Of a stretch of 64,000 nucleotides of DNA, positions 9,001-43,373 are shown one piece after another. The position numbers and the translations under genes were made by a program. Below the pieces are notes generated by a model, which saw only the letters and a program-made list of their open reading frames with translations, was not told the DNA's origin and made no database searches. Position 1 is the first letter of the stretch; each line of letters begins with the position of its first letter. Location of the stretch: NCBI GenBank assembly GCA_044892525.1, contig CM097886.1:35898001-35962000 (forward strand). Direction: 5' to 3'. This DNA comes from Schmidtea polychroa. Lineage: Eukaryota.

Positions 9001-12000
9001 AAAATGAGCCCATTCAAATTAATGTACGGAAGAGAATGTAACATGCCAATGGACCTGGAATACCAACCACCGATATCGCAGTATATGGAGATCGATGATT
9101 ATGTTACGAAATTCAAGGAAAGAATGCAAGAAATTTGGGAAACTGCGGGATTGAATATCAAGTTCTACCAGGAAAGTTATAAAGATTTACACGATCGAAA
9201 GAAAAACGTGAAGCAACATACGTTCCAAACAGGTGATTGGGTAATGATAGAAACCCCGGAATTAATTCCAGGAACCGCAAAAAAGTTACAACGCAACGGA
9301 AAAGGACCATATGAGATCTTATTCGTAGGCGAAACTAATGTAAGAGTGAAATTGGTAAATAACCCCTTTACCAGACCAATATACGTAAACGTGGCACGAT
9401 GCAAATCAATTCCAAAAACAGCCACTAGTCAACCAGAAGGCCGTACATTAACCACACGTTCGCAAACCTACCGAATGAACATGATGCAACAACTCGCAGA
9501 ACCGATCACTGGACGATTAGGTATCCAACCATCAGAAGCGGAAAAGATTGTAAAAGAGGTAAAAATTAAAATACCTGGATGGGCAAAAGATCGATTAGAT
9601 TTCGAAATATTAGGAGGATTATTGACGATGATCGAGAACTATGCAAATAGAGAAAGGACACACCCATTATTGCGAGTAGTCAAAAGCCAATGGCCAATAT
9701 TATTTACAATAACAGATCATTACGGAGACACACCATTACACAAACTCATGAAAGTAGGTAACAACGAGCAAATACTAGAAACAATAGAAGCATTTCACGA
9801 CTGCAAGCGATCAACAGAACAAACAAACAACCAAGGTTACACACCATTAATGATAGCCGCAAACAGAGGCAAAACAAAAGACATTATAACCGCATTACTC
9901 GATACCGGATCGAAAATAACTACACAAGACCACGAGCGGAAAAACGCTCTACATCATGCTATCGAAGGGAGAAGTACCGAGGCGTTCACGTCATTGATGG
10001 AACTACTATCATATGAGGACAATCGGGAAGTCGGAAACATGTATGATGGATTGTTAACAGCGATCAAAGAAAAACTGACGACAATTACCGAAATATTAAT
10101 TACATGGAGAAATCCAATTCGAAACGATTATATGATCAACGTAAACGAAGCGTTCACGAGAGGAGAGAACACGCTGATGAGAGAAGCTATGAAAGGACAT
10201 CATTTATTCGAAATCCCGAATCAATTACTAGAACGAGGGATAAAATTCACAAATCACAAAGACGAACAGTTAACAAAAAAGCGAATCGACACATTCGAAA
10301 AATCACTATTCCAATTTACTAACCAAGTACGAAATAAATATTGGGAAACGGTAAGTGTGTTATATATGATGGACACGATGAATAACATCCGCGAGAATTA
10401 CATGGATATTATCCAAATACTTACAGCAGAGGAACGAATCAATAATCCAAACGGAAAGAAAATGAAAATAAAGTATGAGAAATCCAGGGAATCAAAGTCA
10501 ACAACGAACCAAACGGTCACAAACAACGTCATCGAAACCAAATCAATGAGTATAGATCAAGAGGCAATAATACGCAAAGCAAAAGAAGTGTTCTTTGAGG
10601 AAATGCTAGAGCTGCCAGACGAAATAATATTGTCCAAAATAATAAAAGCCGTACACACATACGCAAGAGATCAAACCACGGGTTTAGATATCGGGAAAAT
10701 CAAAACCTTCTTGCCTCGAGCATTTACGATGGTAACGAAGGATTCCAGAACACCCCTACAACAAGCAATACTAGCGGCGAAAGAAAATAGAGCAATAACG
10801 ATCGTGAGAATCCTTGGAGAGATGGGCGAGGAAACCAACACGAAAAATGAACAAGGTGAAACCGCCATGATGTATGCAGCTATAACGAAAATACACCCAA
10901 AAACACTCCACATCCTACATCAATCAGGATCGAAACTAGACGAAAAGTCCAATGAAGGAAATTCCACCTTGGACTGGGCAACCATACAGCCAAACTTAGA
11001 AATGATCAGATTTATTTGCAAAAATGCGACAAAAGAAGAAGTTGAAAATATGTGCAAAAACACATCTCAGTTTCAATGGAATACGGTACGGAAAAATCTA
11101 GAAGCAATGAAATTATTATTAACCTGGAGAGTACCACAAAATAATAAATATGCGATAAATGTAAACGAATTCTACGAAAACGGAGAAAATGCGATGGTAA
11201 AGAATACCCTAACCAAGGGGGGGACACCTAAAATAATTTTAATAGTATTAAATAGAGAAGACCTAAAATTCACGCAAAATCAGAACGAGCAACAACGAAT
11301 TGGGAAACATCGTCGTATGCAATTGAGAGAGTTAGTTAAAGAATGGAATAGAAAGAGACATGCTGCAACGGGTAGAAAAGAGTTTGAATTCGAAGCAAAA
11401 TTAGCAAGAAACAGAGTGCTAACAGCATATCGCAGATTATTGAACGATATAAATGTCGAGGACGACATTTTAAACGACAGCGGGGGAGATAAACACGATG
11501 ACAATAACGGAAAAGGCCGAAAGGAGGATAAAGAGAAAAGAGAACAGGAGGAGGGTAAACCGGAAAACAAGGATTCGGATACGAAAAGAGAGGGAAACAG
11601 CCCGGGAACTAAGACCAAAGAGGAGGAAAAATCGAATAATGGAAAACAGAGGGTATGCCTACCTTTCACTAACAAAGAAATAGAGACAAATATGATATTA
11701 ATGATAATTATGCTTACCATGATAGAGTTAGTAACAGCTCAGGGAGGGACGAGAACGATAAAAGAAACCAAAGAAGCGGAGAATCAAGATAGCAAAGAGG
11801 ATGAACTAAAGCAAGAAAAGAAAAAGCAAGCACAAGAGCAGCAGTGGGATTTAAAGGAAGAATGGGACTTAAAGGAAAGGTGCATACTAGGAAGATGCAT
11901 GTCTAGAGCGTATCAGAAACTAGTACTGATAAATGAGGCCACAGAACCAATAACAGAAGTAAGAATACAAGAAGCATACCGAAATCGAGACGGGAAGAGA

Positions 12001-12693
12001 ATAACGAACGTCAAAGGAAAAGAGGTACACCTAGGAAAAGGTGGTGAAGTAGTAATAACGCAGATCCAACCTAGAAAAGAGCACAAAGTCTGTATTTCAA
12101 GATTAGGACCAGGCGAGAGATGCCATCAATATGTGACGCAGCAGCAGCCGCCGAAAGAATACACGGTTTGTATCTGGAGGAATGAATCAAAAAGAGAATG
12201 CCGACGATACCCGGGGAAAAGAGGAAAGAAAAGAAAAAACCACGACGAAAAGAACGAAGGAGGAAAGCACAAGAAAACTGGTGAGGAAGCTCAGGACAAC
12301 TATGTTTCGGAGGAAGAGATGGAAAAAATACAAAAGATGGCAAAGGAGGGTATGAACGAGGAAATAGCAAGAATACGGGAAAGGATGAAAGGAAATGGCA
12401 AAAGAGGAAACGAGAAAAGTACAGAAGCGATATCAACATTAACAAACAAGGAAAAACCAGAGAGTATAAGCGTGAAGCAGATGATGTGGATCAGTGGGAT
12501 AATAATAACAGGGGCATTCCTAATCATAACGGGGGGAACAATAAAAATAATTAAGGATAAACGACATCGCGGAGAACTGGAGATGACTCGAATCAGAAAT
12601 TTCCAACATCGAGTGAAACGACCAAGTGATATCAAACAAGAACAGTGGGTGGAGGCCTGGAACGCTCAGCGCCCTCCAAACTCACGTATATAG
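1..12693 (+). CDS. Giant polyprotein (Ubl x3, Bcl-2-like, Env, PR, RT, RNase H, IN, ankyrin, TM protein); 5' incomplete
   Basis: Frame is open from base 1 (RLQAEEERIKQ...); the track start at 64 is only a TTG. Motifs IDTGA, YIDD, TDASG, HDGRLGGH..C..C, DVVGP, TDQGTNF, TERFN, GPY. Confidence 0.95.
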   Translation, partial: RLQAEEERIKQERNQQRQEQPLRINMMKLVKDMKSQYCYNYGKSPRVVPMTEPEKVKEITTEMKTENSTTILKGNQRTQKIFWKKIKDKIEKEHNKAKTETEDENNKSEEQTSQLNHQMLQELESEETTIFERKKLKRVPRMRNLQINMMKRTKDVASSDEEEDYVSSLGGEILQPSEISEPPKGEIKEEESGNEITSESEDEDIEIKLRKAREEAIKQVAEILPVVVRNQEFIDVIPFRRFVQKVMKLERNEKDLIPNEEKSIIKNYMEKMKQADTTRYVIKIGTSRGLERMWIKNTVTDELFDWIREHLGSSRKKEYLYQYQGEQIKPDMHLVDALIWPGETQILKLHKEKQPANLYDWAKDAKAEYDFNIKLKLEQIKQCTLRRNLDKLIKQIQEQVEDNWDLLITRRAPAMYELMSRLRDTEMLRMSDWRTINLIHKYGRLKETQPQRLEITIWLPNEEKRRIKMSNQSTVDDLVSKINQEITEKVRSESSDGMVDDVVMMYDKIILRTEDDTSLSEMGMWDNHQIIRIVPMDEFRTRDVTYQKEIRDRMKTLYRKSTEIIEIHQQWLKEKELQGKITKLNTRSCRRTPWERVWNAESKEWEIRKGTFVETDIGETESESEEEEEEPPEYEEEARGQTSDDESETDVTSESENEARHIHAMRKKEREYADMDGEEATEAREREETERYKQLGDILAMGAKNQKRQVVALANIILKTSENIHNLRGMAKAIEEYRQYNEWYPEQLEQIIRKWRNQEWAQDTQERYHIQIKYPDKSIEELEVHPTTKIRELKKKLAYETPFHLQLFGKSLDDNADVGITPMRLEETNVLTMAETLGKPLKRKSKIIKPTKGSLSTPSPNKAPSKSNETEEVEEIILEDSDDEPGERSPLLVRWPTGAEMWTNNQPSTSYQQPTKLNIKEIIDNTTETETDEQFQKQREPTKVTPESQTDKIIDEWNEWLRNNDSSLPRTDNERNPNYENTREAGTMMEKRAKGRPKKQGEKSELKTKEQLKQEQGQVRLEKLDKIVWDLKEAQPTIERGEKWIRELLKDILIITNPQLRRLWQRKVASTEARQLWHTISGIIPKLIKEKTKTTKTDWDETKRVIEQLTTNANDDEHHLVVITYLMYNLMGLAARKIPNKQFANHVEMTVLIIENTIEPHIIRAGGWKRLIQAPRKNEQERSMQVRLKKLLNELEWELPMKDPASRKASINSLMMTMMIWMLCTSGATGFTIYDCDNMIMRDKYSLRDIEECRQASPNKLDIVRTKVTYHVYQESDFIRTQARECVVSKKVLAYYCGQYSYSTLILPGLDKEIVSIQREDCKELFRTGALKMHNGVTIHGQTGMIKTESVYVSGKVKSSDGSCNGGTYTIRGEVISGVVVIESYTVELKEYEAQFDANNYQMKTNPACKATENVCRTGVSTIIYEANTQKCRLQLLKSALFNEVKGEIYENENDEDGNDRVRMRNGKPMPPSPREKRLSTQKTPTALITDDPDLGMRFIKEKETTKCDSIVYKTNYAGIYMSRQIIDRAVGKIATEDVKLYLYANNKMDFLFHRGQTTLQKVYYDLIQNDCSLNKEILKTKLAIAITHPDNTMPSLPLPDGHFGRMVGEVMYTYQCTKTYARMPEKSILPEKRCANELEIRYKGQNRFVQPVTRIMNPVGFYPNLFNCSNAYGPLYERPDGKWMMLPGKTISEEPKKFGLIELATELDFKPIDVSNGGMYSPEDLETARLNVLFPARRESILSNMVTITGGTNYQSGPNYELLLSPDHFQQATSNMMKAMWGRFLVFGQMMAGILGIILIIQIVRVILTQMLACFDIYKREKKVNWKMIVGFLPFLAKTMVLHGHSKDIHRIKRLIKILTKIKGTDEEVGRRFRKVMYDEATRRQLKKNKPKFLDRFRSQSSNSDSDDDDNGNDKCLYPNRNPNEKPMETAPYWEKEKTNTWIANGSYIPPDIVGPQAALTMTQNMYPQLPSQPGMHYMPTRRTKSVDQADDVRTIAAMSLPGGPAVTVMIQINGKETNAMIDTGANVSAIAINQIPSKHWKNIESTTIHIIACSKETVDVVGRWWTTLRYQDNEIETYLAVIPKLSVPCIIGTDLMPELLKEVVIDLTTMCLKDKTGRICKMNAVIRCPEKIIVPAKSQMICQIKVDTGMEGEVIFEPSKSFEKRRELPLAREIITINQEGVIPLNITNFEEEDKIIYENEKLGRLTPMMDIELPKVTNEMIKDDELWTIDSMLLTNDEKKKLHRLLVEYKDIFAISDLDLGTCDVTLHAIPLIDETPIALRPYKLAEMQKEIAEAEVQKMLDAKVIEPSCSPWQFPVVMVKKKDGTQRFCIDYRKLNAVTKRDTYPLPDINEMLLMLQGAAYFTSLDLKSGYWQIKVKDEDKEKTAFTLGRDLYQFRKMPFGLTNAPASFQRCMNFVTHGIKQCMVYIDDLLIYSATFEQHLEDIRNVFIRLRQWKLKLKPSKCDWAKEKVTFLGHIVSAKGKEPDPRNIEKIKLCPAPKTVTQVQEFLGLCGYYRKFIKNYAGIAKPIQELVKKDISFIWEKEQQQAFETLRDKLIEAPILVHPDFKKPFLLATDASGYAAGAILGQLDDEGKERVIGYYSRTFKKHEKNYSVTEREALAIIQAIKHFRYLLWGHEICITTDHQPLVWLGQHKEASSRLMRWAMQLQEYSPFIKFKAGRANANADCMSRFIFPDLVDSEMQRICLIVAEDLDFCQLRKDQQEDAELKQIIDYVKTGKTEVYAKDQKLKEHMDKHRHRYIIEKDWLLIMDGEKRLMCIPENRRKELLTQYHDGRLGGHMSSKKTLARMKQKYFWPTLTEDVTEWVKNCLTCATRKNTGSKWKAPLTPMPVPIEPMTMISMDVVGPLPESDKGNVYILVITDFLTKFPEAFAMPDQKAKTIAKILVEEICCRYGTPKQILTDQGTNFMSEIMSEVTNYFKIAKLRTSPYHPQTNGMTERFNGTLIQMLSNYVDRHQRDWDEYINLCLMAYRMSIHASTKMSPFKLMYGRECNMPMDLEYQPPISQYMEIDDYVTKFKERMQEIWETAGLNIKFYQESYKDLHDRKKNVKQHTFQTGDWVMIETPELIPGTAKKLQRNGKGPYEILFVGETNVRVKLVNNPFTRPIYVNVARCKSIPKTATSQPEGRTLTTRSQTYRMNMMQQLAEPITGRLGIQPSEAEKIVKEVKIKIPGWAKDRLDFEILGGLLTMIENYANRERTHPLLRVVKSQWPILFTITDHYGDTPLHKLMKVGNNEQILETIEAFHDCKRSTEQTNNQGYTPLMIAANRGKTKDIITALLDTGSKITTQDHERKNALHHAIEGRSTEAFTSLMELLSYEDNREVGNMYDGLLTAIKEKLTTITEILITWRNPIRNDYMINVNEAFTRGENTLMREAMKGHHLFEIPNQLLERGIKFTNHKDEQLTKKRIDTFEKSLFQFTNQVRNKYWETVSVLYMMDTMNNIRENYMDIIQILTAEERINNPNGKKMKIKYEKSRESKSTTNQTVTNNVIETKSMSIDQEAIIRKAKEVFFEEMLELPDEIILSKIIKAVHTYARDQTTGLDIGKIKTFLPRAFTMVTKDSRTPLQQAILAAKENRAITIVRILGEMGEETNTKNEQGETAMMYAAITKIHPKTLHILHQSGSKLDEKSNEGNSTLDWATIQPNLEMIRFICKNATKEEVENMCKNTSQFQWNTVRKNLEAMKLLLTWRVPQNNKYAINVNEFYENGENAMVKNTLTKGGTPKIILIVLNREDLKFTQNQNEQQRIGKHRRMQLRELVKEWNRKRHAATGRKEFEFEAKLARNRVLTAYRRLLNDINVEDDILNDSGGDKHDDNNGKGRKEDKEKREQEEGKPENKDSDTKREGNSPGTKTKEEEKSNNGKQRVCLPFTNKEIETNMILMIIMLTMIELVTAQGGTRTIKETKEAENQDSKEDELKQEKKKQAQEQQWDLKEEWDLKERCILGRCMSRAYQKLVLINEATEPITEVRIQEAYRNRDGKRITNVKGKEVHLGKGGEVVITQIQPRKEHKVCISRLGPGERCHQYVTQQQPPKEYTVCIWRNESKRECRRYPGKRGKKRKNHDEKNEGGKHKKTGEEAQDNYVSEEEMEKIQKMAKEGMNEEIARIRERMKGNGKRGNEKSTEAISTLTNKEKPESISVKQMMWISGIIITGAFLIITGGTIKIIKDKRHRGELEMTRIRNFQHRVKRPSDIKQEQWVEAWNAQRPPNSRI
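835..1050 (+). other. Ubiquitin/SUMO-like domain 1 in polyprotein
   Basis: YVIKIG...LFDWIREHLG...YQYQGEQIKPDMHLVDALIWPGETQIL resembles the beta-grasp pattern; weakest of the three. Confidence 0.4.
1354..1605 (+). other. Ubiquitin-like domain 2 in polyprotein
   Basis: LEITIWLPNEEKRRIKMSNQSTVDDLVSKI...MMYDKIILRTEDDTSLSEMGM matches the Ubl pattern (TV.DL..KI; L.DD..LS..G). Confidence 0.6.
2299..2499 (+). other. Ubiquitin-like domain 3 in polyprotein
   Basis: YHIQIKYPDKSIEELEVHPTTKIRELKKKL...LQLFGKSLDD aligns by eye with ubiquitin [27 protein letters not shown]...LIFAGKQLED. Confidence 0.7.
3061..3525 (+). other. Bcl-2-like helical domain in polyprotein
   Basis: BH2-like IEPHIIRAGGWKRL preceded by amphipathic helices at BH1 spacing; the canonical NWGR is absent (DEHHLVV). 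The upstream part (NPQLRRLW...EARQLWHTIS) could alternatively be MADF/Myb-like. Confidence 0.6.
3628..5448 (+). other. Internal signal peptide + envelope (class III-like fusion) glycoprotein + TM anchor
   Basis: Hydrophobic LMMTMMIWMLCTSGATG then FTIYDC..YSLRDIEEC..YQE..REC..YCG: Cys spacing of chuvirus-type/retrotransposon-borne glycoproteins. NxS/T sequons (NCS, NYQS-like region); TM FLVFGQMMAGILGIILIIQIV. Confidence 0.8.
6001..6372 (+). other. Retropepsin aspartic protease
   Basis: VMIQINGKETNAMIDTGANVS and CIIGTDLM. Confidence 0.95.
6840..7560 (+). other. Reverse transcriptase (Ty3/gypsy)
   Basis: SPWQFPVVMVKKKDG, RFCIDYRKLN, LDLKSGYWQI, MPFGLTNAPASFQR, VYIDDLLI (YIDD at 7288-7299). Confidence 0.97.
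7700..8085 (+). other. RNase H (Ty3/gypsy)
   Basis: LATDASGYAAGAIL, YSVTEREALAI, TTDHQPL, NANADCMSR. Confidence 0.95.
8125..9480 (+). other. Integrase (HHCC, DDE core, GPY module)
   Basis: HDGRLGGH...CLTC; SMDVVGPLP; LTDQGTNF; GMTERFN; GKGPYEI. Confidence 0.95.
9721..11250 (+). other. Ankyrin repeats, two clusters (~9721-10250 and ~10741-11250)
   Basis: GDTPLHKL, GYTPLMIAA, KNALHHAI, RTPLQQAI, GETAMMYAA, GNSTLDWAT. Confidence 0.85.
11686..12693 (+). other. C-terminal type I membrane protein: signal peptide, FN3-like/Cys module, TM, short tail
   Basis: MILMIIMLTMIELVTA/Q; VVITQIQPRKEHKVCI resembles FN3 strands E-F; TM WISGIIITGAFLIITGG; ends NSRI*. Confidence 0.6.
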
Positions 12694-12853
12694 AAAGGAA
12701 TATGACTGTATATAATTGTAAAAAGTAAGTATATCTTATGTATATAACAGTACTATATCTTTATATAAGCGCGGTATCAATATTATACAATAACGGGAAT
12801 CATAAAATAAAATTAAATTTACATAAGAGCTGAAAAGTGTATATAAATTAGGA

Positions 12854-13213
12854 ATGGATCAAGGAAATAACGAAATGAACCACAATACAGTAACTGAAGA
12901 ATTATGGAAGCAACAATGTGCCGTATTAGCACAATTAGTGTCCAATTTGCAAGAACAAGGACTGACGATGCACAGAAACCTGATCGAGAGTATGAACAGA
13001 GGATTTAGTTATTTGAAGATAATTGAAGACCAGAGGTTAAAAATCGAACAAATGCAAAGAGAGATAGAGAGGATAACCCAATATAGCCGTCGACAGGAAA
13101 TTGAAATAGACAGAATGATGGAGGAAGCAGAACAGACAGAAATAGAAGACTGGTCGGAATGGCTAATGAATAGAGAGGAGAGCGGACACGAAGCCGACTC
13201 TTCCGAACCCTAA
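12854..13213 (+). CDS. Accessory ORF1, 119-aa coiled-coil protein with acidic tail
   Basis: ORF track; same-length homolog at 51825-52184(-). Confidence 0.85.
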   Translation: MDQGNNEMNHNTVTEELWKQQCAVLAQLVSNLQEQGLTMHRNLIESMNRGFSYLKIIEDQRLKIEQMQREIERITQYSRRQEIEIDRMMEEAEQTEIEDWSEWLMNREESGHEADSSEP

Positions 13214-13298
13214 ACCAAACCTAGCTCAAAATGTAAATAATTGTAAATAAAATATCGAACCTGTATCGATAAGAACTATTTGTACATATAATTATAGA

Positions 13299-14687
13299 AT
13301 GGATAAACGACAAAGAGAAGAGTTCAGAGAGATTGTCGAGCAAGTCCGAAAATCTACAACGATCAGAATACACAAACATGTTACGTGCGGAATATGTGAA
13401 AAGTTGTTAAAGGAACCTCACCAAACGCAATGTGGATGCAGAGTATGTAAAGAATGTATCAGTGAAGCAATAAAGAATAGACCACAGAAGTGCCCGGTGT
13501 GTAAAGAGACACTAATATCGAGTTTAGAAGACACTAACGAGGATAAAGCCGCAGTGAAAGACATGTTAAACACCAACCTGGGATGCAAAAATGCCCCATG
13601 CGAATGGAAAGGAGTAATATGGAAGGTAGTACAACATATGGGAGAATGTATGTACCGAATTGGCCAGTGTGAAAGGTGCCATAAAACCATTCGAGCAAGC
13701 GAAGAAAAAGAGCATCAAAGGCAGTGTGAAGAGAGATTGGAAAGATGTGAACACTGTGGAGAAATAGATACGTGGATAAATCTCACCCTCAAACATCACA
13801 ATGTCCAAGAGGAGAGAGTATGTGCAGAGTTCAGTGGGGAATGCCCGAACGGATGCGAAGAAGGGAGAATAATAAAAATAGCCCAACACCTAAAAGAATG
13901 TGAGAAGAAAAGGATGATATGTGTACTAGGTAGATGGGGTTGTCAGAAATTACTACACCGAGGTGAGTTACCACATCATTTAGTAGAAAATGCTTCAACT
14001 CACGCAGAAATGTGGTCGACTGCGTTACAAGAAAGCGAAGAGAAAGTAAAACAAATGGAGATAGAGATAACATCGTTGAAAGTGTTAGTCAAAGAACTAC
14101 TAGAAGAAAGGAAAGCGTTCGAAGAAGCCCGAGCAAACATAAAGATGCAAATAAACCGAACAGAAATCAGTAATAATCAGGCCAAGGAGCTACATCAGAA
14201 AATACGGGAAATAAATCTAAATGAGATAACCCCAACAGCACCCTACATATGGAAAATAACGGGAGTAAAAGAAAGAATACGAAAAGCAAAAACCGGAGAA
14301 GAGACAAGAATAACAAGTCCTACATTCCATTCTTGGAAAAATGGGTACAAAATGAAAATGAAGATATATCCCAACGGGGACGGAACCGGATCAGATACGC
14401 ACTTTTCGATTTTCTTTCTGTTATGTAAAGGAGAATACGACGAAATATTAGAATGGCCGTTCCAGGCAAAAATCGATATTACCCTGATGAACAACCAAAG
14501 TATACATGAGCAAAGCTTCAAAACAACGGGGAATCAAATAGCTTACCAGAGGCCCCTCAACGAAGAAGGATCAGCAACAGGAGCACCCACGTTCATCTCA
14601 CAACAAAGAGTAGAAGATATGGCGAGAAATGATACCATATATATCAAGATGACCGTGAGGAAAGAGGAGAAGGGTAGAACGGAATAA
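13299..14687 (+). CDS. TRAF: TRAF-family protein (RING, TRAF zinc fingers, coiled coil, MATH), 462 aa
   Basis: CGIC..LLKEP.QT.CG.RVC..CI..CPVC; repeated C..C...H...C fingers; YIWKI, SPTF...GYKMKMKIYPNGDG...HFSIFFLLCKGEYD.ILEWPF; homolog at 50346-51734(-). Confidence 0.95.
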   Translation: MDKRQREEFREIVEQVRKSTTIRIHKHVTCGICEKLLKEPHQTQCGCRVCKECISEAIKNRPQKCPVCKETLISSLEDTNEDKAAVKDMLNTNLGCKNAPCEWKGVIWKVVQHMGECMYRIGQCERCHKTIRASEEKEHQRQCEERLERCEHCGEIDTWINLTLKHHNVQEERVCAEFSGECPNGCEEGRIIKIAQHLKECEKKRMICVLGRWGCQKLLHRGELPHHLVENASTHAEMWSTALQESEEKVKQMEIEITSLKVLVKELLEERKAFEEARANIKMQINRTEISNNQAKELHQKIREINLNEITPTAPYIWKITGVKERIRKAKTGEETRITSPTFHSWKNGYKMKMKIYPNGDGTGSDTHFSIFFLLCKGEYDEILEWPFQAKIDITLMNNQSIHEQSFKTTGNQIAYQRPLNEEGSATGAPTFISQQRVEDMARNDTIYIKMTVRKEEKGRTE

Positions 14688-14879
14688 CCAATCGAATAAT
14701 GTTGTATATAATAATCTGTATATATCGGTGTATATAACCAATAAAATATTATATAATAATAGTATGAAAACCCTAAATACGAAAACCCAAAAATGATGCG
14801 AAAATTCCCCAAGAAACAGTAAATAATGAATAAATTCCTTTTTCATAATAAAAGATTAATCGATGTCTATGATTTAGAG

Positions 14880-15935
14880 ATGACAAAAGAGAAAATAACC
14901 GAAACTGCGATAGACCCAACCAATGTCAACAAGACACAAATTCTCCGAGAACATAACAAAAAATGGAACAAAGTAATGTTCCAACTAACTAATCTCACCC
15001 GAAATCACATCGAAGAAACTAGAGAAGATGAGAATAGTCAATACCAATGGTTAATACACAACTTAAGAGCGGAAGCAGAAGCATGCAAAAGAGCATCAAA
15101 ATGGGCGTCACTAGAAAATACCCGCCAAGAAGCACACAGCCACTACTTAAAGCAGCTAGTGCAGGAAGCGAGAAAGAGACTTACCGATGAGAACACCAAG
15201 CGCGAAGCGGAAAAACAAATAGAAGACAGGAAAATGATGCACTTAGTGGCAGAAGCGAGGAAATGGAAAAGACAAAACAGAGAAATGAAAAAAGAGATGA
15301 AAGAATTGCCCATGAGACTCGGATATGAAAGCGAACAAGGTAAATGGGAGGAGAATTTAATAATAAAGGAAGAATTGAAAAGGTTGAGAAAGGTCGCCGC
15401 CCGAAGCCAAACCTGGCAAACAAAGGCTATGGAGTTTGAGCGACATTTGGCAATGAAGTGCGACATAAGAGAGCACGAGAATGCCGCAATGGAAGAGATG
15501 ATAACCCAACAAGCGGGACGGGTTGTGGAATTAGTAAATCAGGTAGAAGAGATGAAAAGAGACCTTAATGGATTACAAGGATCGCTGGAACAAAGAAACA
15601 TGGTCCTAGCGGGAAAAAACAGAAAATTAGAAAACGAAAGGAAAATGTACACCGAAAATATTAAAAACTTAGAAATAGAAATTGAAAAATGGAAGGGCGA
15701 CGAGAAAATCAAGGCCCTAGACAAACAGATAGAGGCGCAAGATGAAGAGACAAGGTATCTCACCTATCTGCTCGACGAGGAATTGAATATCACTCGAGCT
15801 CTAAGAGACGAAGTTAGTGAATTGAGAGCTCAAATTCCCCAATATTACCTACCATACGACCCTATTGCGATACAGTTACATTCCGCGGTCGATAGTGATG
15901 AAGGTTATGTAGGCCAGGAGGAAACCTTCGTATGA
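14880..15935 (+). CDS. Accessory ORF3, long coiled-coil protein (~351 aa)
   Basis: ORF track 14826-15935; start moved to ATG 14880 because homology to copy B (49088-50125) begins there. Confidence 0.85.
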   Translation: MTKEKITETAIDPTNVNKTQILREHNKKWNKVMFQLTNLTRNHIEETREDENSQYQWLIHNLRAEAEACKRASKWASLENTRQEAHSHYLKQLVQEARKRLTDENTKREAEKQIEDRKMMHLVAEARKWKRQNREMKKEMKELPMRLGYESEQGKWEENLIIKEELKRLRKVAARSQTWQTKAMEFERHLAMKCDIREHENAAMEEMITQQAGRVVELVNQVEEMKRDLNGLQGSLEQRNMVLAGKNRKLENERKMYTENIKNLEIEIEKWKGDEKIKALDKQIEAQDEETRYLTYLLDEELNITRALRDEVSELRAQIPQYYLPYDPIAIQLHSAVDSDEGYVGQEETFV

Positions 15936-16103
15936 GGGTGGATGAAAAAATGAAAAACTAAAAACCGGGACGTATATCCCAAACAAAAAAATTAAAGTAT
16001 TGTAAAAGTATTCAGGGGACTGTAACCCAAACTATTAAATTTTATATCAATGTATACGTATAAGTCGCACTATAGCGCACCATTAACTGTACATATTATA
16101 GAT

Positions 16104-16802
16104 ATGAAAATCGAGGAAATGATAGAAATTATGAGCGACGTAGAAGAGGGAGAGATTGAGGCAGAAACAACAGAAACCCAAACGCTAAAGGCCGAGTTAC
16201 GGGAAGAGAAATACGAAAACGGGAGATTAATAAACAAATACCTGGAGGACCGGAAAATGATAAAGGTGTTAAAGAAAGAGTGCGAAGCGTTGGGGGAAAT
16301 AAAAAGAGAAACGGAAGAGGAAAATGAATGGCTACACGAACAAAGGAAGCGAGGGAAAAACTGGGAAAAGATAGCGGAAGAACTATGGAAAGAGAGGGCA
16401 AGCTTCAAAGCAAAGGAGGTAATCCAAGACTACTGGAAAACTGAGGCGAAGGAGCGCCAAACAGCTATAAATAAATTAAAACGACAACTAGAAGAAAACC
16501 AACGGGAAAGTAAAGAAATGAGGAAGTGGGTCCGCAAATATAGAGAAATAGAAAGAAAACATCAACAACAAAATTACCTGCAAGAAAACGAACAAGATCT
16601 CCTACAAATCGAGCTAAAAAGAAACCTTGAAAAGAAAAGGGAAGAAATTAGACGCTTGGAAAAAGAAATTAGACATCTAAAGAGAGAAGCCCGTGAAAAA
16701 GACCGACAATTGGAAATGCTGCCCGAGTTAAGACACAGGGTAATTAAAGCAGAGTCCACCTTGATGAGAATCGGCGAAAATAATCCAAATCAGAACCATT
16801 AA
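16104..16802 (+). CDS. Accessory ORF4, coiled-coil protein (~232 aa)
   Basis: ORF track 16050-16802; ATG 16104 matches the copy B start (48212-48913). Confidence 0.85.
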   Translation: MKIEEMIEIMSDVEEGEIEAETTETQTLKAELREEKYENGRLINKYLEDRKMIKVLKKECEALGEIKRETEEENEWLHEQRKRGKNWEKIAEELWKERASFKAKEVIQDYWKTEAKERQTAINKLKRQLEENQRESKEMRKWVRKYREIERKHQQQNYLQENEQDLLQIELKRNLEKKREEIRRLEKEIRHLKREAREKDRQLEMLPELRHRVIKAESTLMRIGENNPNQNH

Positions 16803-16857
16803 ATTAAGGGTCATTAAAACCAATTGTAAATAAACATAATGAATGTATAATAGTATC

Positions 16858-17511
16858 ATGCGAGGCGAGATGATGATAACAATGATGGTATTGATGATTC
16901 TGATGGAGAGCAAACAAATAGACGCCCAACCGAAAATCGTACGAGATTACCGAAATCAAAATCAAGAACCTAAACAAGAATCCAGTCAATGCACATACCC
17001 GATGACCGTAAAAACCCATATCATCCAAACCATTCAATCAACCCGATCACACATCAACAACATCCAAACAATGTGTAAAAAGAATCCCATTTGTAAAATG
17101 ATAAACAAACAAATCCTCGAACAAATTCAACAATTCGACCAGTTGGAACAACAAATGCAACAAGAGAATTTTGGAAATCTGGTAGAAAAGCCAAAAATAC
17201 CTCCCGAAATCAATGACACCCATTATCTCATATATGCGGTGATCGCAGAAACCCTCCTCCTATGTCTACCAATATTCATGAAAATTTACGAAGTTCGAAA
17301 TAGATGTAGAATCTCGACATCAATAAGAGTAACCTCGAACCAAAATCCTCAAGAAGTGCCCCTGACAAATCTTAACCCAACCCCATTCCGACCTCGAACC
17401 CCGAGTAATCAACCAATCCAGCCGAAATCTAATAGTCAGACCTATCTCAACATCAATACCCAAACCAACCAACAGCCGCCAGCAGAAGCATCAATGGTTA
17501 ACAGTTCATAA
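16858..17511 (+). CDS. Accessory ORF5, type I membrane protein (signal, coiled coil, TM, P/Q/N/T-rich tail)
   Basis: MMITMMVLMILMES signal; TM YLIYAVIAETLLLCLPIFM; diverged homolog 47521-48156(-) shares I.ETL..C. Confidence 0.8.
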   Translation: MRGEMMITMMVLMILMESKQIDAQPKIVRDYRNQNQEPKQESSQCTYPMTVKTHIIQTIQSTRSHINNIQTMCKKNPICKMINKQILEQIQQFDQLEQQMQQENFGNLVEKPKIPPEINDTHYLIYAVIAETLLLCLPIFMKIYEVRNRCRISTSIRVTSNQNPQEVPLTNLNPTPFRPRTPSNQPIQPKSNSQTYLNINTQTNQQPPAEASMVNSS

Positions 17512-17696
17512 ACTCTAACTCAAACATTTGTGTTATTATATGTGGAAACTTTTATTGTATGTACAAACTATCACCTTAAGTGATACTTGCTTGATCTTGC
17601 TTTGACCTTGATCTTACAATAAAAATTTTATCATTGTTGTATAATTTTCGTGTTCGTGTTATATTTTTTTGAATGAATGAATTAAGTTAATTATGC

Positions 17697-17734
17697 AATT
17701 GCGGGACGCAATTTTGATGGGTCCCCGAGTGATT
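17697..17734 (+). promoter_or_regulatory. Conserved pre-LTR hairpin and non-canonical PPT region
   Basis: AATTGCG-GGA-CGCAATT then GGGTCCCCGAGTGATT directly before TGTTGG; counterpart at 47291-47328(-). Confidence 0.7.
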
Positions 17735-18068
17735 TGTTGGGCTGAGTCGAGAATTTAATCGTTGAAAAATAAGAAAGTAGGGAAGTAGAACATTAAGAAA
17801 AATAAAAATAAAATAAATAAAATCAGAAATAAAATAGAATAGGATATAAGGAAAATAATAATTAAGACATAAGAATTAAAACAAAAAATAAAATTAAGAA
17901 AAGATTAAAATAGAACAAGTTGACAAATAAATAAAGAGGAATTCAAGAAATAATAAGGAAATTAAGGAAATAAATAGAAAAACATATTAAAAATAAAGAA
18001 AATAAGGAAAAAACAACCTAAAAACAAGAAAATTATATTAAATTAATAGAAATAAGCGGTACTCAACT

Positions 18069-18105
18069 CTGATTGGTCCGCACAAATAAGAATTTGATAT
18101 ATATA
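18069..18105 (+). promoter_or_regulatory. CCAAT box (reverse, ATTGG) and TATA-like element in LTR A
   Basis: CTGATTGG 18069-18076 and ATATATATA 18097-18105; copy B has CTGATTGG and TATATAT at the equivalent position (46761-46788). Confidence 0.5.
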
Positions 18106-18128
18106 CAACTACCAAAAACATTAAATTT

Positions 18129-18204
18129 ACTGTTAACCCCGAGCATTTCATAGGTAAGAAAGAATGTTTACTGTTTTCACTGTTAACCCCGAGCATTTCA
18201 TAGG
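18129..18204 (+). repeat. 26-bp direct repeat (period 50) bracketing a putative 50-nt GT-AG intron (18154-18203)
   Basis: ACTGTTAACCCCGAGCATTTCATAGG twice; first copy followed by TAAG giving GTAAG. Confidence 0.75.
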
Positions 18205-18627
18205 ATCGACACTACTAGCCAAGCAACCGTCATTCAGAAAACTCCACATCTATTCAAAACCAGTTCAGAGACCGAAATACCATTCATCACAATAATCAAC
18301 ATCCAACGGACCACCATTAGAACTATTTGGAACGAACAACATTGAACTTTGACTCAGCCTAACAATAGTAAGGGGTATTTCATTTGTTTATAGATTTATT
18401 TAAGTATTTGCAAAGCTAATAGTAATGTTAAATATTAACGATTAAATATTTTAGTTAACTCTCTTCATTTGATTCTCCATTTTAATAACTTTAACGTATT
18501 GATGGAATTTGTATTATTTAAGTATTTCAGAATTAATAAAATATTTTTATCCAGATGTCCGTATTTTATTTGAATTAAAGATTTTATAAATTTTCATTTA
18601 ACGAGTAACGTGGAGTTGAGATACTCC

Positions 18628-18819
18628 ATGTCATGGTATGAGGTGCCTTCGGGAGCTCAGCCGGTGGACATGGAGTATTTCAATCACGCAGCTAGATTGG
18701 GCCGAAATGTGAAGGCTTCTTCACGGGTCCTATCGCTGAAGATGCGACTGAATTATCACAATGGGTTATGGTTAAAAGAATCGCTGGTAGACAATGATTT
18801 CACAAAGATAGTCGTGTGA
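18628..18819 (+). CDS. Small LTR-encoded ORF-a (63 aa)
   Basis: VPSGAQPVDME and LKMR motifs recur in a frameshifted ORF in LTR B (46227-46441). Confidence 0.45.
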   Translation: MSWYEVPSGAQPVDMEYFNHAARLGRNVKASSRVLSLKMRLNYHNGLWLKESLVDNDFTKIVV

Positions 18820-20324
18820 ATGAAGGGATTTTCAAGGATTTGCACAGTGATTGAGGGCGTCGCATTCTTTTTTGTTTTTCTTTCGTCAAGTCGTTTTCGT
18901 AAATCTTACCCCTATTGAAAAATGAGATCCAGACAACGATTTAGTGAACTTCGTCAAAAATAACGACATCTCATAGTACGCTTCATCTGGAAACATGGTT
19001 TTATCAATTTAATTGCGACAACGTCTATTTGCCGGACTCAGTAGAACTGATTTCGTATGAAATTCCGTTATCATAGACCCGAGGTCATCTAGCCTGTCCA
19101 GATTGCATGTCAGGTTACGAAAGTATTCTAAAAACTTTAACTAACTCGAAACTATAAAATGCGAGATTCTACGAAAACCTCTCTAATATTATAATCAGAA
19201 AGTTTTTATAGACTTAGTTATTTCAAAAATTATAACAGGTAAAATATCACCAAATTTAATTAATAACATTTGTTTCTACAATAAGAGCCAGGTCATCACT
19301 GTATATATCCAAATTATTGAACCTGAGAGAAATTTTCGAATGGCTAAGGACAGGTTCCATCGAGACGGCATTACATCTGAATAGGAAAATCCGAGTAGAA
19401 TGACGCGAGTAGTAAAATGCTTCAGCATTTGGTGGAATTATTCCCTCGACGATCACTGAAAAGATCCAATAAATTTCCAAACGATGGTGATCATTCACAC
19501 AAGTTGATAAGGGTAAAATTCCGCGATGAGAACTGACGGCAGCATAAATCATGATTCAAATAAATCACTGTGCAGAGAAAATCATATGACAGCAGGATCG
19601 ATAAAATCACCGTGAAAATGGCATACACCAAGTGAGTGAGATAAGATAGTAGCCATACACGAATCCATGTGGTGAGAGCACAGAATATCGGACTAGCACA
19701 CATGATAGTCGCGACACGGGACATTCACAATAGGTCGATAATGTAATCAACTAGTTGACAGTAGTATCCGTAAATTTGGACATGTGTTATGACCGATGAG
19801 ATATCCCATTAGGGTGTTCAAGTAATGGCTGATGTAAACTCATCACATATTCTCAGACAAATGGTAGACAATATAGATAATCACATTCACTACCGAATTA
19901 AAAGTGCACTTCCAATAACAAATTTCGAATCAAAAAATATGTTGAGAATAGCGATAGTAACTTGTTTTTAATAAATTTAAATAGATAATTTATAGCAAGG
20001 TTTAGTCGCGTACTATAATGTCCCTCTACTAAAGCGTTATTATATTATTTCACCAATATTATATTTACACCCTATTAATTATTACGCCCCTCAGGTATAC
20101 AGTTAGATCAATAGAGAGTCAAAGTTAATAGCATGCGTCAAACCGATGGCATTTGGTTAAATAAACTGTTTCAACAAATAAGATCCGTGGTAAAACCGGA
20201 TTGTAGAATGAGTTTTCCTTTTTTTTTTTTTCGTCGGTCAAGCATCCACGAATGGCCGTGGGTCGTATCTAATTTATTCCAAAATCGTATGTTCTACATT
20301 TCATTAGTATTATTTATAGCAAGC

Positions 20325-21077
20325 ATGCTACCAACCACTAAATCAGCATTACGGCCGTGCTTCTCGTGCGCGGATAAAAATACGGTGATAAAGGACCTAC
20401 AAACTCAGATTGGACGTTACAAGAGGAAGATAGACGAGCTGGAAGGGACATGGTTTAGTCCCGCTCGGATGAAAGAGATCCAAAAGAAGCTCGATCGTAG
20501 CGAGCATTGCCGGGACGCGCTAATATCTGAGAGCCGTGCCCAAAGAAGTCTAATCCGAGAACAATCCGAGGCACTGCATAAGGTTTACGTGCAGGCGGCT
20601 ACAACCCGAAAAATAGTGCAGATTCCCATCCGAGAGGCCGATGACATCTTTCCGCCTCATCACAACCTTTCCTCGAATCCATCTCCACCGTTCAAGAGAC
20701 CGTGCCGAGACTGCGTCGAAACCGAATTGTCCCCCAAGCGACCAGATGTTGTCATCACGGGTACCAGTAAGCCCCCCACTGCTAGTCCATCCGTATCAGT
20801 CACCCTTCTGCAAGTGGCCTCTTCAAGCAAACCCAAGCGCAAACAACTCTCTCGTGCAGAGCGCAAGAAGAGACAGCGCGAGCGCGCCACTACAAAGCCA
20901 AACATCCCATCCATAGAGGATTCAACCAGCGGTGGCAACTCTCACGTGTCCATCGACCTAACAACGGGACCCTCGGCACGAATCATATCAGCCGCTGGCG
21001 TAATGTGGGAAGAGAACGCTTCCGAGTTTTTTAACCTCGACGAATTATTCGCCGACACTGAATGGGAGAAACAATAA
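20325..21077 (+). CDS. LTR-encoded ORF-b: CxxC, coiled coil, basic NLS, acidic/aromatic C-terminus
   Basis: LRPCFSCADKN shared with 43656-44420(-); NLS KPKRKQLSRAERKKRQR; ATG 20325 is preceded by TTTATAG. Confidence 0.8.
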   Translation: MLPTTKSALRPCFSCADKNTVIKDLQTQIGRYKRKIDELEGTWFSPARMKEIQKKLDRSEHCRDALISESRAQRSLIREQSEALHKVYVQAATTRKIVQIPIREADDIFPPHHNLSSNPSPPFKRPCRDCVETELSPKRPDVVITGTSKPPTASPSVSVTLLQVASSSKPKRKQLSRAERKKRQRERATTKPNIPSIEDSTSGGNSHVSIDLTTGPSARIISAAGVMWEENASEFFNLDELFADTEWEKQ

Positions 21078-21200
21078 AATCCCAGTGGTGGTCAGGATGA
21101 GGAACAAGGATCCGATCTATGTTGATTATGATGTTTTCTCTTCTTTCGACAAACGTTAGTAAAGTGTACAGCTGAATCCTTGTGTCATAACATTGAAATT

Positions 21201-21206
21201 AATAAA
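21201..21206 (+). terminator. Candidate LTR poly(A) signal
   Basis: AATAAA followed by T/GT-rich sequence, 120 nt after ORF-b; not verified in B. Confidence 0.35.
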
Positions 21207-21342
21207 TCTTGTTGTATTACACGTCTTCGTTCATGAATAATTAGACTTTAATTAAGTGGGTCGAGTAGAGAACCCGCGAGATCTAGTGAGAAATTCCCAA
21301 TTTGCATTCAGCGAATCCCGATAAGCGGTTGTGTAAGGAAAT

Positions 21343-21484
21343 GGACGTAAGCCCTTCTATCGGCAGTCGTGAATGGGAAGTCGAGGCCTCAGCAAGGAGT
21401 AGTTTTAAGGCAGAAGCTCACCTGCTTGCTGGCGTCTCGCCTGCATAGTGCAGTACCAACGTGAAGTGATTCACGGGCACTATG
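21343..21484 (+). ncRNA. Conserved cis-acting structured RNA near the LTR 3' end (copy A)
   Basis: Three helices covarying across LTRs A, B and C; invariant AGTACCAA bulge at 21452-21459. Confidence 0.8.
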
Positions 21485-22733
21485 TTGGAAGAAAGTTATG
21501 TGGGGTTTCACTCCAGGTTGACAAATCGGTGGCACCTTTTATTCGAGATGGACAATCAACCCTTAGACCCGTCAACGTGGTAGAGTGGTCAGCCGAGGTG
21601 TAACCCCAACAATGCTATTGCTGTTTTATGTATATTTTTGTTAATACTTTGTCATTTTCCTTATCCCAAGAGCCAAGAGTTCCGACGACTAGAGCGGCAA
21701 AATTGGTTTTGCATTTGTTACTTTTTCCAGTCTCGAGTGCTAATGTCCTATATATATTTGTAGTTGTCTACTCTAGGCGTCTGGAAGTTCTCTTCGTGAT
21801 CATAAGGTACTTAGATGTCTAGTATGCTTAATTTGTTATTACGTTTTGTTTTTATGATAAGGTCTGGTCGTAAGCATGTGTCGATACCAGGGGTTGGCAC
21901 GTAGAGTCTACTTAGAATCCTCTAGATATAAGTAACCCGGATACCCGCCATGTTTTTTATGGAACCGAAAACCGGGTAATTTTAGACTGGTATCCGGTTA
22001 ATTTCATTTAAATAATTTTTTCCATTATTTCAAATTAAATGCAAGAGCCGAATCGGTGTTCTTAAACGACTAACGTCTTTGAACGACAAAAAAGGGACAG
22101 CACTTAGCGGCCTATAGATTTCGAGATGAGCGAATGTATAGATTCGGATTATTTTGAAAGGATGCAGCTGCAAATACTAGCGATTAATTTTTGCGCTGGC
22201 GAATTAGAGATTTCCAAAAATATTTTTAATCTACATTGCATTGACCGGCCGATGACCGCGGCCCGAGGAGACTGAGCTTTCCTCGCGATATCCGTCGTTT
22301 TATGGTTAATCAATCCTTTTGTACCTGAAACATTAGTATATATTGCCTGAAAATCGAAAAATACGATTTAAGTTAATCGTTAGGCGAGAAGTCGGCTAGA
22401 CATCATTCAATAAGCACGAAGACACGTCAAGAATCGCGAACCTTCAATGTATTTATCTTTAAAAATATTTTAATTTTGAATTATCCTAAGCGTCTAAAAA
22501 GGTGTATGATATGCATGATCGTGATCTCAATTTATTTTTTTTCACTCTTTTTTGATTGATAAAATTTTAAAAAAATATTTAAATATTAGTATGACATTTT
22601 TAAAAGCTGATAGTCTTAAATAAAAATCCGTATCATTGTTGCAATAAATAATAATTATTTGTCACATTTATTATTACATTTTTCATAAAAATTCGGAAGA
22701 AAATTCCATATTTTTTGTAAACACTTGATTTGA

Positions 22734-36190: not shown

Positions 36191-36325
36191 CTTGGTACCC
36201 GTTGAGTAATCAACGTTGGTACTGTACCAAGGGGTTGAGTACTCGCAAAAATTGAGTGCGTTAGGAGCACTATAATTGTCGAGCACTCTATGGGTTCACG
36301 GACGGCCGATAGAAGGCATGTGTCC
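36191..36325 (-). ncRNA. Conserved structured RNA (copy C)
   Basis: CTTGGTAC-AGTACCAA-CGTTGA-TTAC-TCAACG-G-GTACCAAG; upstream GGAC-ACAT-GCC-TTCTATC-GGC-C-GTCC. Confidence 0.8.
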
Positions 36326-36503
36326 GATTTATTTCGGTCCCTCATCGCGATTGTTTTCCCAAACGCTTTTCTGTCGACCGTCTTGTCCTGGACAATCACA
36401 AAGTTTAATCACATATCCATCAGACAATGAAAATCATTTATTTAAACACTACAATATTACAATGTCGGTTTTACCCAGGAGGGGTCGCACTCTCAAACAT
36501 TCC

Positions 36504-36809
36504 TCAGGATCGTGGAGTGGCTTCCGGCCCTTTCGATTTTTCTTGCTCGGCCAGCCAGGCCCTTTTCAATTTTTCTCGTGTATTCCGCCCTAGCCGTTTA
36601 CGTTTCGGCTTGCTTGCCTGGGCTGGTGGGTATATCTTGGCCAGCTCCACAGGAAGAGGGCGAATCTGTTCTCGGAGAGCGTCCTGGATGAACCTTTCGT
36701 TCAGTTTGCTCTCGAGCGAGCGCACTTGTAGCTTCAGCGCTCGGATTTCGAGTTGATCCTGCTCCGCCTGGGTCTGGAGTTGTGAGATGTGTGTTGTTCG
36801 TTTCTTCAT
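36504..36809 (-). CDS. LTR-encoded ORF-b homolog (101 aa, coiled coil + NLS)
   Basis: ASKPKRKRLGR matches A's SSKPKRKQLSR; start trimmed to MKKRTT (track 36504-37079). Confidence 0.65.
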   Translation of the reverse strand: MKKRTTHISQLQTQAEQDQLEIRALKLQVRSLESKLNERFIQDALREQIRPLPVELAKIYPPAQASKPKRKRLGRNTREKLKRAWLAEQEKSKGPEATPRS

Positions 36810-43239: not shown

Positions 43240-43373
43240 TATGAGCCCGTGGCGATGTTCCACGTTGGTACTGCTCACACGGGTTGGAAAGAGTTAGCAG
43301 GTGAGCCCCTGCCTTAGGACTACTCCTAACCCTTTCTCGGTTCGGGTTCTACGGTGCCTTAGAAGGTCTTACC
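43240..43373 (-). ncRNA. Conserved structured RNA (copy B)
   Basis: TGTGAGC-AGTACCAA-CGTGG-AACATCG-CCACG-G-GCTCATA; upstream GGT-AAGA-CC-TTCTAA-GG-C-ACC. Confidence 0.8.

Follow-up and report, generated by a model that had tools for sequence, protein, structure and literature searches.

The question raised by this locus is whether the long terminal repeat (LTR) of a Gypsy retroelement can carry a protein-coding gene of its own, and what the product of such a gene might do. According to the accessible part of PMC4667437, LTRs are ordinarily non-coding, and the sag gene of MMTV is the standard exception; accessory genes as such are known in some Gypsy elements (PMC2774666, in excerpt). The window, i.e., the whole 64-kb stretch of DNA analyzed here, contains two large retroelements which face each other and are both cut at the window edge: element A (plus strand, 1-21611) and element B (minus strand, from 43177 to past 64000). 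They share 79% nucleotide identity across 15.5 kb, rising to 96% amino acid identity in RT-RH-IN. Each contains a giant ORF without a stop before the window edge, with 4230 codons in A and 3882 codons in B. The internal region of A (1..17734, plus strand) codes for a polyprotein of at least 4230 aa, followed by five accessory ORFs, and that of B (47291..64000, minus strand) is open at the window edge. In polyprotein A, a fusion-type env, PR, RT, RH, IN, and ankyrins follow each other in one frame, as judged from Pfam matches to Monjiviricetes_fusion at 1456-1795 (E 1e-66), to RVP, RVT_1, RT_RNaseH, and rve in the same ORF, and to Ank_2 (E 1e-17). One of the downstream ORFs codes for a TRAF-like RING-MATH protein (Pfam MATH, E 5e-28, plus RING), next to four other ORFs.

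This architecture matches the published description of giant Burro-like Gypsy elements, to which we liken A and B. The accessible text on the Burro/GYPSM1 elements of planarians reports the same giant ORF, in which a mononegavirus-like fusion env precedes PR-RT-RH-IN in frame, as well as ankyrin repeats, a MATH/TRAF module, multi-kb LTRs, AT-rich host DNA, and a total length around 30 kb (PMC6431247); the visible extent of element A is at least 21.6 kb, and the LTRs of the window measure 3.9-5.6 kb. The elements differ in the position of the TRAF module, which is a separate ORF downstream of pol here, whereas it is part of the polyprotein in S. mediterranea and located upstream in D. tigrina, and the accessible description mentions no LTR gene (PMC6431247). 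No Pfam match to BIR, BCL2, or dUTPase at E<=0.01 was obtained in the visible part of the elements, and some of the corresponding motifs of Burro elements were found by HHpred only, according to the same excerpt. Among 37 database hits to the polyprotein, five show the env-before-pol layout (P0018, P0019, and P0021-P0023; 44-46% identity), and none is a named Burro sequence. The flanking DNA mostly has a GC content of 22-36%, which is compatible with a planarian host without proving it, as planarian DNA contains more than 70% A/T (PMC11410931, in excerpt).

Because both elements leave the window before their 5' LTRs, an exact-repeat search over the window returned no exact direct repeats, and the placement of the LTRs rests on a comparison with a third sequence, C, which is located between A and B (36120..41749, minus strand, 5630 bp) and is bordered by a 4-bp target-site duplication, CTTT, at 36116-36119 and 41750-41753. 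The 3' LTR of A (17735..21611, plus strand, 3877 bp) runs from TGTTGGG to CCCAACA with a 7-bp terminal inverted repeat, its 3' end being placed by the match of its sequence GTAACCCCAACA at 21611 to the end of C at 36120, GTAACCCACCA. For the 3' LTR of B (43177..47290, minus strand, about 4114 bp), the 3' end was placed by a TG...CA end and by an old RNase H flank extending to at least 43144. Counting both strands, the window contains four copies of the 9-mer TGTTGGGCT, where a hand estimate predicts about 0.3; three of them mark the starts of A (17735), B (47290), and C (41749), and the fourth falls within the TRAF ORF. Each of the three LTRs opens with an A-rich tract of 50-60% A (17735..18090 on the plus strand in A, with 58% A), contains a TATATA at LTR position 364 (A), 522 (B), or 659 (C), and carries a common 3' block located 96-160 nt from the LTR end; a GTAACCC..CA end together with the hairpins described below is common to A and C. 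Immediately before the LTR, A and B have a motif in common (17690..17734, plus strand, in A) that occupies the polypurine-tract position without being purine-rich, and that is absent from the flank of C. No internal genes were found within C (0 HSPs by tblastn with 37 Gypsy polyproteins), and its right flank consists of decayed RT/RNase H on the opposite strand (matched by 22 of the 37 queries). A reading of the left flank as gag was not confirmed: it shows a Cx2Cx4H by eye, and neither a Pfam match nor a tblastn match from the 37 polyproteins was obtained.

The shared starts, A-rich heads, TATA boxes, and 3' block, combined with the lack of internal genes and of the upstream motif in C, indicate that C represents a solo LTR of 5630 bp from a related lineage and that ORF-b lies within the LTRs of A and B. 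We therefore regard it as very probable that ORF-b is located inside LTRs of 3.9-4.1 kb, which lends indirect support to the original placement of the ORF in both LTRs via the ends shared with C. The alternative would confine the true LTR to a few hundred bases at the 3' end and make ORF-b the final accessory gene of the internal region; it appears highly improbable. It draws on the weak points of the placement, namely that the 5' LTRs lie beyond the window, that no purine-rich sequence occupies the polypurine-tract position, and that the duplication is short and may have arisen by chance at 4 bp; moreover, A, B, and C cannot be aligned across most of their length, and the left flank of C is matched by none of the 37 Gypsy polyproteins. 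This alternative leaves unexplained why C shows the same 9-mer, A-rich head, TATA box, hairpins, and GTAACCC..CA end between identical 4-mers, why three of only four copies of the 9-mer on both strands of the window fall on LTR starts, and why C contains neither internal genes nor the motif common to A and B. The earlier argument that the solo LTR speaks against a shorter LTR excluding ORF-b is supported by the shared ends of C and its CTTT duplication.

ORF-b itself spans 20325..21077 on the plus strand in LTR A (250 aa) and has a counterpart at 43656..44420 on the minus strand in LTR B (254 aa), which is 41% identical. An in-frame ATG is present further upstream in A at 20133, while a stop directly precedes the ORF-b ATG in B. 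Because the upstream ATG has no counterpart in B, we take 20325 as the shared start and rejected a longer reading of 314 aa, whose extension is not shared by B. An ORF of at least 250 codons was never obtained in 300 shuffles of the 1-kb region, the longest shuffled ORF reaching 163 codons, and the Smith-Waterman score of 368 between the two proteins compares with a best value of 86 from 1000 shuffles. Over residues 9-110, 55 of 102 positions are identical, the three codon positions show 63, 70, and 28 identities out of 102, and pS and pN amount to 0.90 and 0.35, which indicates that ORF-b is under purifying selection. The GC3 values of the LTR ORFs in A, B, and C (0.54-0.60) also differ from those of the four internal ORFs measured (0.38-0.42). 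Shuffles, alignment score, and codon-position pattern thus place ORF-b beyond chance as a genuine gene in both A and B, and in all likelihood this gene is both real and situated inside the LTR. Apart from low-complexity A-rich matches, the LTRs of A and B are alignable in three blocks only, i.e., their 5' start, the initial part of ORF-b, and the 3' block.

The protein was described in the original prediction by a CxxC motif, a coiled coil, a basic cluster, and an acidic-aromatic end. All four are present in A and B: the CxxC (C12 and C15; 20358..20369, plus strand), a core of residues 13-113 (20361..20663, plus strand) with two long helices around a W-x-x-P kink, a basic helix with 10 K/R in 17 residues (20829..20879, plus strand) as candidate NLS and nucleic-acid-binding motif, and an acidic-aromatic tail (20994..21068, plus strand) with 7 W/F/Y/L in 25 residues as candidate activation region. 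The net charge over these 25 residues is -8 in A and -5 in B. Acidic-aromatic tails are known to activate transcription. AlphaFold2, run on the two-sequence alignment, yielded helices at residues 13-40 and 46-97 and a basic helix at 177-188, the rest being disordered (mean pLDDT 59.7). The single-chain model is a monomeric hairpin, unlike the extended form seen in the predicted dimer: two copies of residues 8-118 gave a parallel in-register coiled coil with a score of 0.57 against 0.02 for the best control, with at least 97% of contacts common to the runs and a pLDDT of at least 73. Of 30 solved pairs, 21 attained the score mark applied, compared to none of 23 solved single chains; among eukaryotes, the numbers were 17 of 29 pairs and none of 30 single chains. 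Because only one of seven pairs without an older solved relative reached the mark, the prediction supports binding rather than showing it. In this prediction, residues 12-87 pair as a parallel homodimeric coiled coil with core a/d contacts at 66, 70, 73, 77, and 80 and with C12 and C15 at the interface in A; the basic helix lies about 70 residues away from the coiled coil, unlike the arrangement in bZIP proteins.

No match that would give a function was found for ORF-b in Pfam, among PDB sequences, by Foldseek (viral and PDB), or in the Atlas, and none of these revealed a known DNA-binding fold. An Atlas neighbor named 'delta antigen' (0.77) was set aside as generic, as were ESCRT-III-like structural rows (Z at most 9.7, rmsd 2.7, 96 aligned), which are tied with unrelated proteins; for helical hairpins, a Z under about 13 denotes a common arrangement only. 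Homology to superantigens was likewise not detected, either by a Pfam match at E<=1 or by a PDB sequence match.

A word-indexed search with ORF-b retrieved nothing among 446 candidates of near length, whereas an HMM scan of 1.84 billion representatives produced 15 hits. The core is present in 14 of these hits; P0015, a low-complexity match without the core, was dropped, and P0016 is a further, fifteenth relative, which is not caught by the pattern behind the motif counts given below out of 14. W43, P46, L66, E69, R71, and R74 do not vary across the 16 rows, and A and B are recovered by a profile built from the hits alone, with E values of 1e-22 and 1e-26. These results point to an unnamed and undescribed protein family to which ORF-b belongs. 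In 10 of 14 relatives, the Trp is followed at a distance of 87-107 residues by a basic, mostly Arg-rich motif (at least 7 K/R in 14 residues), and four relatives have 9-10 Arg in 14; A and B contain 8 K/R in 14 residues, half of the motif being Lys. An acidic-aromatic stretch with a PPxY is present in 3 of 14 relatives, many of the 14 being cut by fusion. The CxxC, found in none of the 12 relatives that have 40 residues upstream, is confined to A and B, and we rejected it as a zinc site of the family. Twelve of the 15 relatives (11 of the 14, plus P0016) are fused to unrelated domains, each from a different family (SNF, GDC-P, CRAL-TRIO, subtilase, L21, ABC, actin, PTP, hAT, DAD, ion channel, and PF00762). 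Fusions to such differing host domains fit dispersed copies, and we infer that an exon of a dispersed repeat has probably been absorbed into gene models or transcripts.

The solo LTR also contains ORFs of its own. One of them, coding for 101 aa with a coiled coil and a basic cluster (36504..36809, minus strand), occupies the position of ORF-b and was putatively related to it. Its pairwise scores with ORF-b are 58-62, reached by 1-3 of 1000 shuffles, and an unrelated internal coiled-coil ORF scores 60 with it (36 of 1000 shuffles). The family HMMs detect A and B at E values of 1e-22 to 1e-49 and list no segment of C at E<=10 among 1050 segments. With an in-register profile, from which P0012-P0014 were excluded because they leave the domain early, C scores 11-15 compared to 67-95 for A and B, ranking fifth and third of 423 segments beside unrelated coiled coils, and its score was reached by 4 and 1 of 200 shuffles. 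Because the family HMMs miss it, the invariant core is absent, and an unrelated ORF scores equally, the claim of a shorter ORF-b homolog in C was not confirmed; the 101-aa ORF, which also lacks the CxxC and the acidic tail, may at most be a truncated, distant relative. A second ORF of 121-129 aa (37137..37526, minus strand) is helical with an AT-hook-like C-terminal motif (Pfam E 0.18, below the cut-off). It was rejected as an ORF-b homolog, since about half of the shuffles reach its scores of 30; the Atlas contained no match to it. C therefore supports the presence of genes within the LTR, not the survival of ORF-b in C. A selected protein-coding gene nevertheless sits between the LTR 5' end and the 3' hairpins in A and B, and a gene in this position should double in each provirus and remain in solo LTRs. 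This structural part of the earlier proposal, duplication per provirus and survival of solo-LTR formation, holds from position, but the family profile does not detect ORF-b itself in C.

The LTR also offers candidate signals for expressing the gene. In A, an inverted CCAAT box, CTGATTGG, and a TATATATA box (18069..18105, plus strand) form a candidate promoter, followed about 50 nt past the TATA box by a candidate splice donor AG/GTAAGA, split after AG (18152..18159, plus strand). The same pair of boxes is present in B, again with a donor-like site within about 50 nt after the TATA, and C contains TATATA. The sole clear TATA box of the LTR lies upstream of ORF-b. A candidate splice acceptor with a U-rich tract and TAG (20295..20319, plus strand) ends 5 nt before the ORF-b ATG in A, and an acceptor-like AG abuts the ATG in B. 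When an acceptor filter chosen post hoc was applied, 2 of the 60 ATGs of LTR A and 1 of the 79 of LTR B remained, and the ORF-b ATG was retained in both LTRs. Two AATAAA hexamers (21073..21206, plus strand; at 21073 and 21201) are located around and after the ORF-b stop in A, and two follow the last ORF in C; no canonical AATAAA is present after ORF-b in B. This arrangement would imply one of two layouts: an unusually long R that holds the gene, or a location of the gene in U3 behind an internal promoter, with a second start close to the hairpins, the latter resembling MMTV sag (PMC4667437, in excerpt). With the gene inside the LTR, the genomic RNA would have to pass the poly(A) signal of the gene once, unless the same signal also makes the genomic 3' end.

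Near the 3' end of the LTR, A, B, and C were folded independently and yielded the same two tandem hairpins, at 21381..21488 on the plus strand in A and on the minus strand at 43235..43336 in B and 36188..36288 in C. The second hairpin contains an 8-nt bulge, AGUACCAA (21452-21459 in A), which is invariant in all three LTRs. All 12 pairs of its core form in each LTR, and 7 of the 12 show two-sided changes, as counted from three sequences with the register anchored on the bulge. The z-scores of the hairpin pair are -4.1, -2.9, and -6.3 for A, B, and C (0, 2, and 0 of 300 shuffles), while the second hairpin of B alone reaches -1.7 (16 of 300 shuffles) and the whole tail of B -0.3; in a coarse scan, the hairpin windows rank best in C and not at the top in A or B. 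Rfam gave no matches at E<=1 over 17600-47500. The hairpin block may serve as a binding site for protein or as a signal for packaging or priming. A TAR-like hairpin was not found in the first 96 nt after the TATA box of A (z +2.0).

Our leading, though tentative, reading is that ORF-b codes for a dimeric nuclear activator of the expression of its own element. The original prediction had proposed a transactivator or a silencing suppressor, and a role as nuclear regulator fits the anatomy of the protein in A and B, with its predicted dimer, basic or Arg-rich motif, and acidic-aromatic tail. The TATA box near the 5' end of the LTR would set a transcription start about 30 nt further on, and splicing would join a short first exon to the acceptor next to the ORF-b ATG, giving an mRNA that ends just past the stop codon. 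The dimer would enter the nucleus via the basic helix and be tethered to nucleic acid of the element by the basic/Arg-rich motif, the bulged hairpin being the best candidate site, and the acidic-aromatic tail might then recruit the host transcription machinery to produce more of the genomic RNA of more than 20 kb, as Tat or Tas do. The LTR would thus be a self-contained transcription unit for a positive regulator of the element; since the whole unit lies within the LTR, each provirus would have two copies, and a solo LTR would keep one which could act in trans. This reading draws on the selection on ORF-b within an LTR alignable in three blocks only, the LTR ends, the TATA box and acceptor, the family core and basic motif, the predicted dimer, the tail, and the conserved hairpins. 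Several findings stand against it: just 3 of 14 relatives show a tail-like segment, none of 12 has the CxxC, the searches listed gave neither a function nor a known DNA-binding fold, the spacing of basic helix and coiled coil is unlike that of a bZIP, the single-chain model is a hairpin, B has no canonical AATAAA after the ORF, and no TAR-like hairpin was found in A; in addition, packaging or priming would be an equally suitable role for the hairpins.

Some of the same features suit a Rev/Rex-like protein, whose dimer would bind LTR RNA via the Arg-rich motif so that genomic RNA bypasses the splice and poly(A) signals of the LTR and leaves the nucleus. An Arg-rich motif combined with coiled-coil oligomerization is the plan of Rev, the conserved bulged hairpin would be a suitable target, an LTR gene would force the genomic RNA past the poly(A) signal of that gene once, and the response elements of beta- and deltaretroviruses are situated at or in the LTR, according to the accessible parts of PMC5568270 and PMC9523361. 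The four relatives with 9-10 Arg in 14 residues point in the same direction, and one relative has a sub-threshold Pfam REV match (E 0.0013); yet this match concerns one of 15 relatives, is of low complexity, and falls below the cut-off. Eight patterns, taken from general knowledge, revealed no leucine-rich NES after the basic helix in A or B, whose motif is half Lys and whose tail is acidic-aromatic, and we consider a Rev/Rex-like function unlikely overall. Such a role does not appear in the original interpretation, and given the Arg-rich motif and the conserved hairpins, it is a serious rival.

ORF-b might instead suppress piRNA or heterochromatin silencing by sequestering a host factor on its coiled-coil surface, with solo LTRs supplying the protein in trans. 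The invariant residues R58, E69, R71, and R74 lie outside the a/d contacts of the dimer, suggesting a conserved partner surface, and Burro elements are PIWI-repressed in planarians (PMC8532177, in excerpt). Pfam, PDB-sequence, and structure searches, however, showed no similarity to known suppressors, and nothing specific points to silencing, which makes this second half of the original proposal rather improbable. We judge it similarly improbable that the gene codes for an accessory protein in host manipulation or assembly, either as a signaling adaptor beside TRAF or as an ESCRT/late-domain protein, residing in the LTR for dosage only. TRAF and ankyrin modules are indeed present in the element, PPxY occurs in 3 of 14 relatives, and the best rows of the structural comparison include ESCRT-III-like hairpins (Z 9.7, rmsd 2.7, 96 aligned); but a Z under about 13 reflects a common arrangement, these rows are tied with unrelated proteins, A and B lack the PPxY, and the basic motif argues for the nucleus.

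Several known systems share parts of this design. Tat, foamy virus Tas (Bel1), and geminiviral AC2 are small, largely disordered proteins with a basic motif and an activation-like region, made from spliced early mRNA. ORF-b shares the basic motif and the activation-like region with them by composition only, and differs by the absence of homology, by its long predicted dimeric coiled coil instead of a Cys-rich domain, and by the location of the whole gene in the LTR. Rev, Rex, Rem, and Rec have in common with it the Arg-rich motif, coiled-coil oligomerization (predicted here), and structured RNA at the LTR (PMC5568270 and PMC9523361, in excerpt), whereas their genes are not inside the LTR and ORF-b shows neither homology to them nor an NES pattern after its basic motif. 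The sag protein is a membrane superantigen. MMTV sag belongs to a vertebrate retrovirus, lies in U3, and has no sequence relation to ORF-b, while the present gene belongs to Gypsy elements and its product looks nuclear. The shared features are the location of the gene in the LTR, an LTR-internal promoter among the promoters (a candidate one here), and a gene that is the only well-conserved part of the LTR, and sag was retained in solo LTRs in 490 of 527 sag contigs (PMC4667437, accessible text). GAG-ENV-POL errantiviruses with a gB-type env from Nematoda, Bryozoa, and Platyhelminthes also carry env before pol, but no accessory or LTR genes are described in the accessible part of that survey, which searched for LTRs only 3 kb beyond the ORFs in these hosts (PMC13524379). 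As the present LTRs are located 5-9 kb after pol, such a search would not reach them.

In the abstract openings and cited papers screened, we came across no description of a gene located within the LTR of a Gypsy element. An LTR gene persisting in solo LTRs is already known from sag; within this scope, the Gypsy setting, the protein family, and the RNA element appear to be new. Both the ORF-b family and the conserved RNA element are open to direct testing. The joining of 12 of 15 database relatives to unrelated host domains is also a warning for annotation, as it is expected if gene models absorb an exon from intronic insertions. In a wider perspective, which we regard as doubtful, Burro-like elements, whose activity in stem cells has been noted (PMC6884822, in excerpt), would be invertebrate counterparts of complex retroviruses, with the LTR as an exchangeable gene cassette for lineage-specific nuclear regulators (ORF-b in A and B, the AT-hook-like and basic coiled-coil ORFs in C); ORF-b and the bulged hairpin would form an independent Tat/Rev-like circuit, and solo LTRs would leave many dispersed, expressed trans-acting regulators whose exons are spliced into host genes. 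If the present reading of the locus is true, the LTR-gene design, possibly with trans-regulation of the Tat/Rev kind, extends beyond vertebrate retroviruses, and solo-LTR formation would leave a gene behind, so that the element is not fully neutralized.

Between pol and the 3' LTR, the two giant Burro-like Gypsy elements A (forward strand) and B (reverse strand) each carry five accessory ORFs, located at 12854-17511 (+) in A and at 47521-52184 (-) in B. All five are present in both elements, with amino acid identities of 27-79%. One codes for a TRAF-like E3 protein, three for coiled-coil proteins, and the remaining one, whose start is signal-like, probably for a membrane protein. The internal region at window positions 76-17700 is strongly A-biased on its sense strand (42% A), whereas the LTR ORFs lack this bias (27-33% A). 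The short 63-codon ORF-a of LTR A (18628-18819, +) may not be a gene, because its counterpart in LTR B (46255-46462, -) is split over two frames and the similarity between them is marginal, its score being matched by 25 of 1000 shuffles.

Other transposons in the window include a decayed older Gypsy element (35700-36119 and 41750-43176, +), which appears to have received nested insertions of both solo LTR C and the 3' end of element B, and a further decayed Gypsy RNase H fragment (28235-28348, +). A hAT DNA transposon (30426-33765, +), flanked by TAGGGTTG terminal repeats, contains an intact transposase of 599 amino acids (ORF 31565-33364), and a second hAT fragment codes for a BED-finger (22875-23282).

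Directly 3' of the TATA box, the candidate promoter element near the LTR 5' end, LTRs A (18126-18205, +) and B (about 46685-46745, -) contain direct duplications of 28-30 nt. AG closes each copy and GT directly follows the first one in both LTRs, an arrangement possibly representing a 50-nt mini-intron, although the duplicated sequence is not identical in A and B. About 0.9-1.3 kb inward, LTRs A, B and C contain long pre-miRNA-like hairpins at 18608-18688 (+; z -6.0, 22-pair stem), 46005-46075 (-; z -4.1) and about 40700-40790 (-; z -2.8), respectively; that of LTR A overlaps ORF-a. These hairpins are possible small-RNA precursors or response elements. The invariant bulge of the tandem 3' hairpins (21452-21459 in LTR A, 43265-43272 in LTR B, 36216-36223 in solo LTR C) contains ACCA, which resembles the 3' end of a tRNA and might base-pair with a putative primer-binding site.
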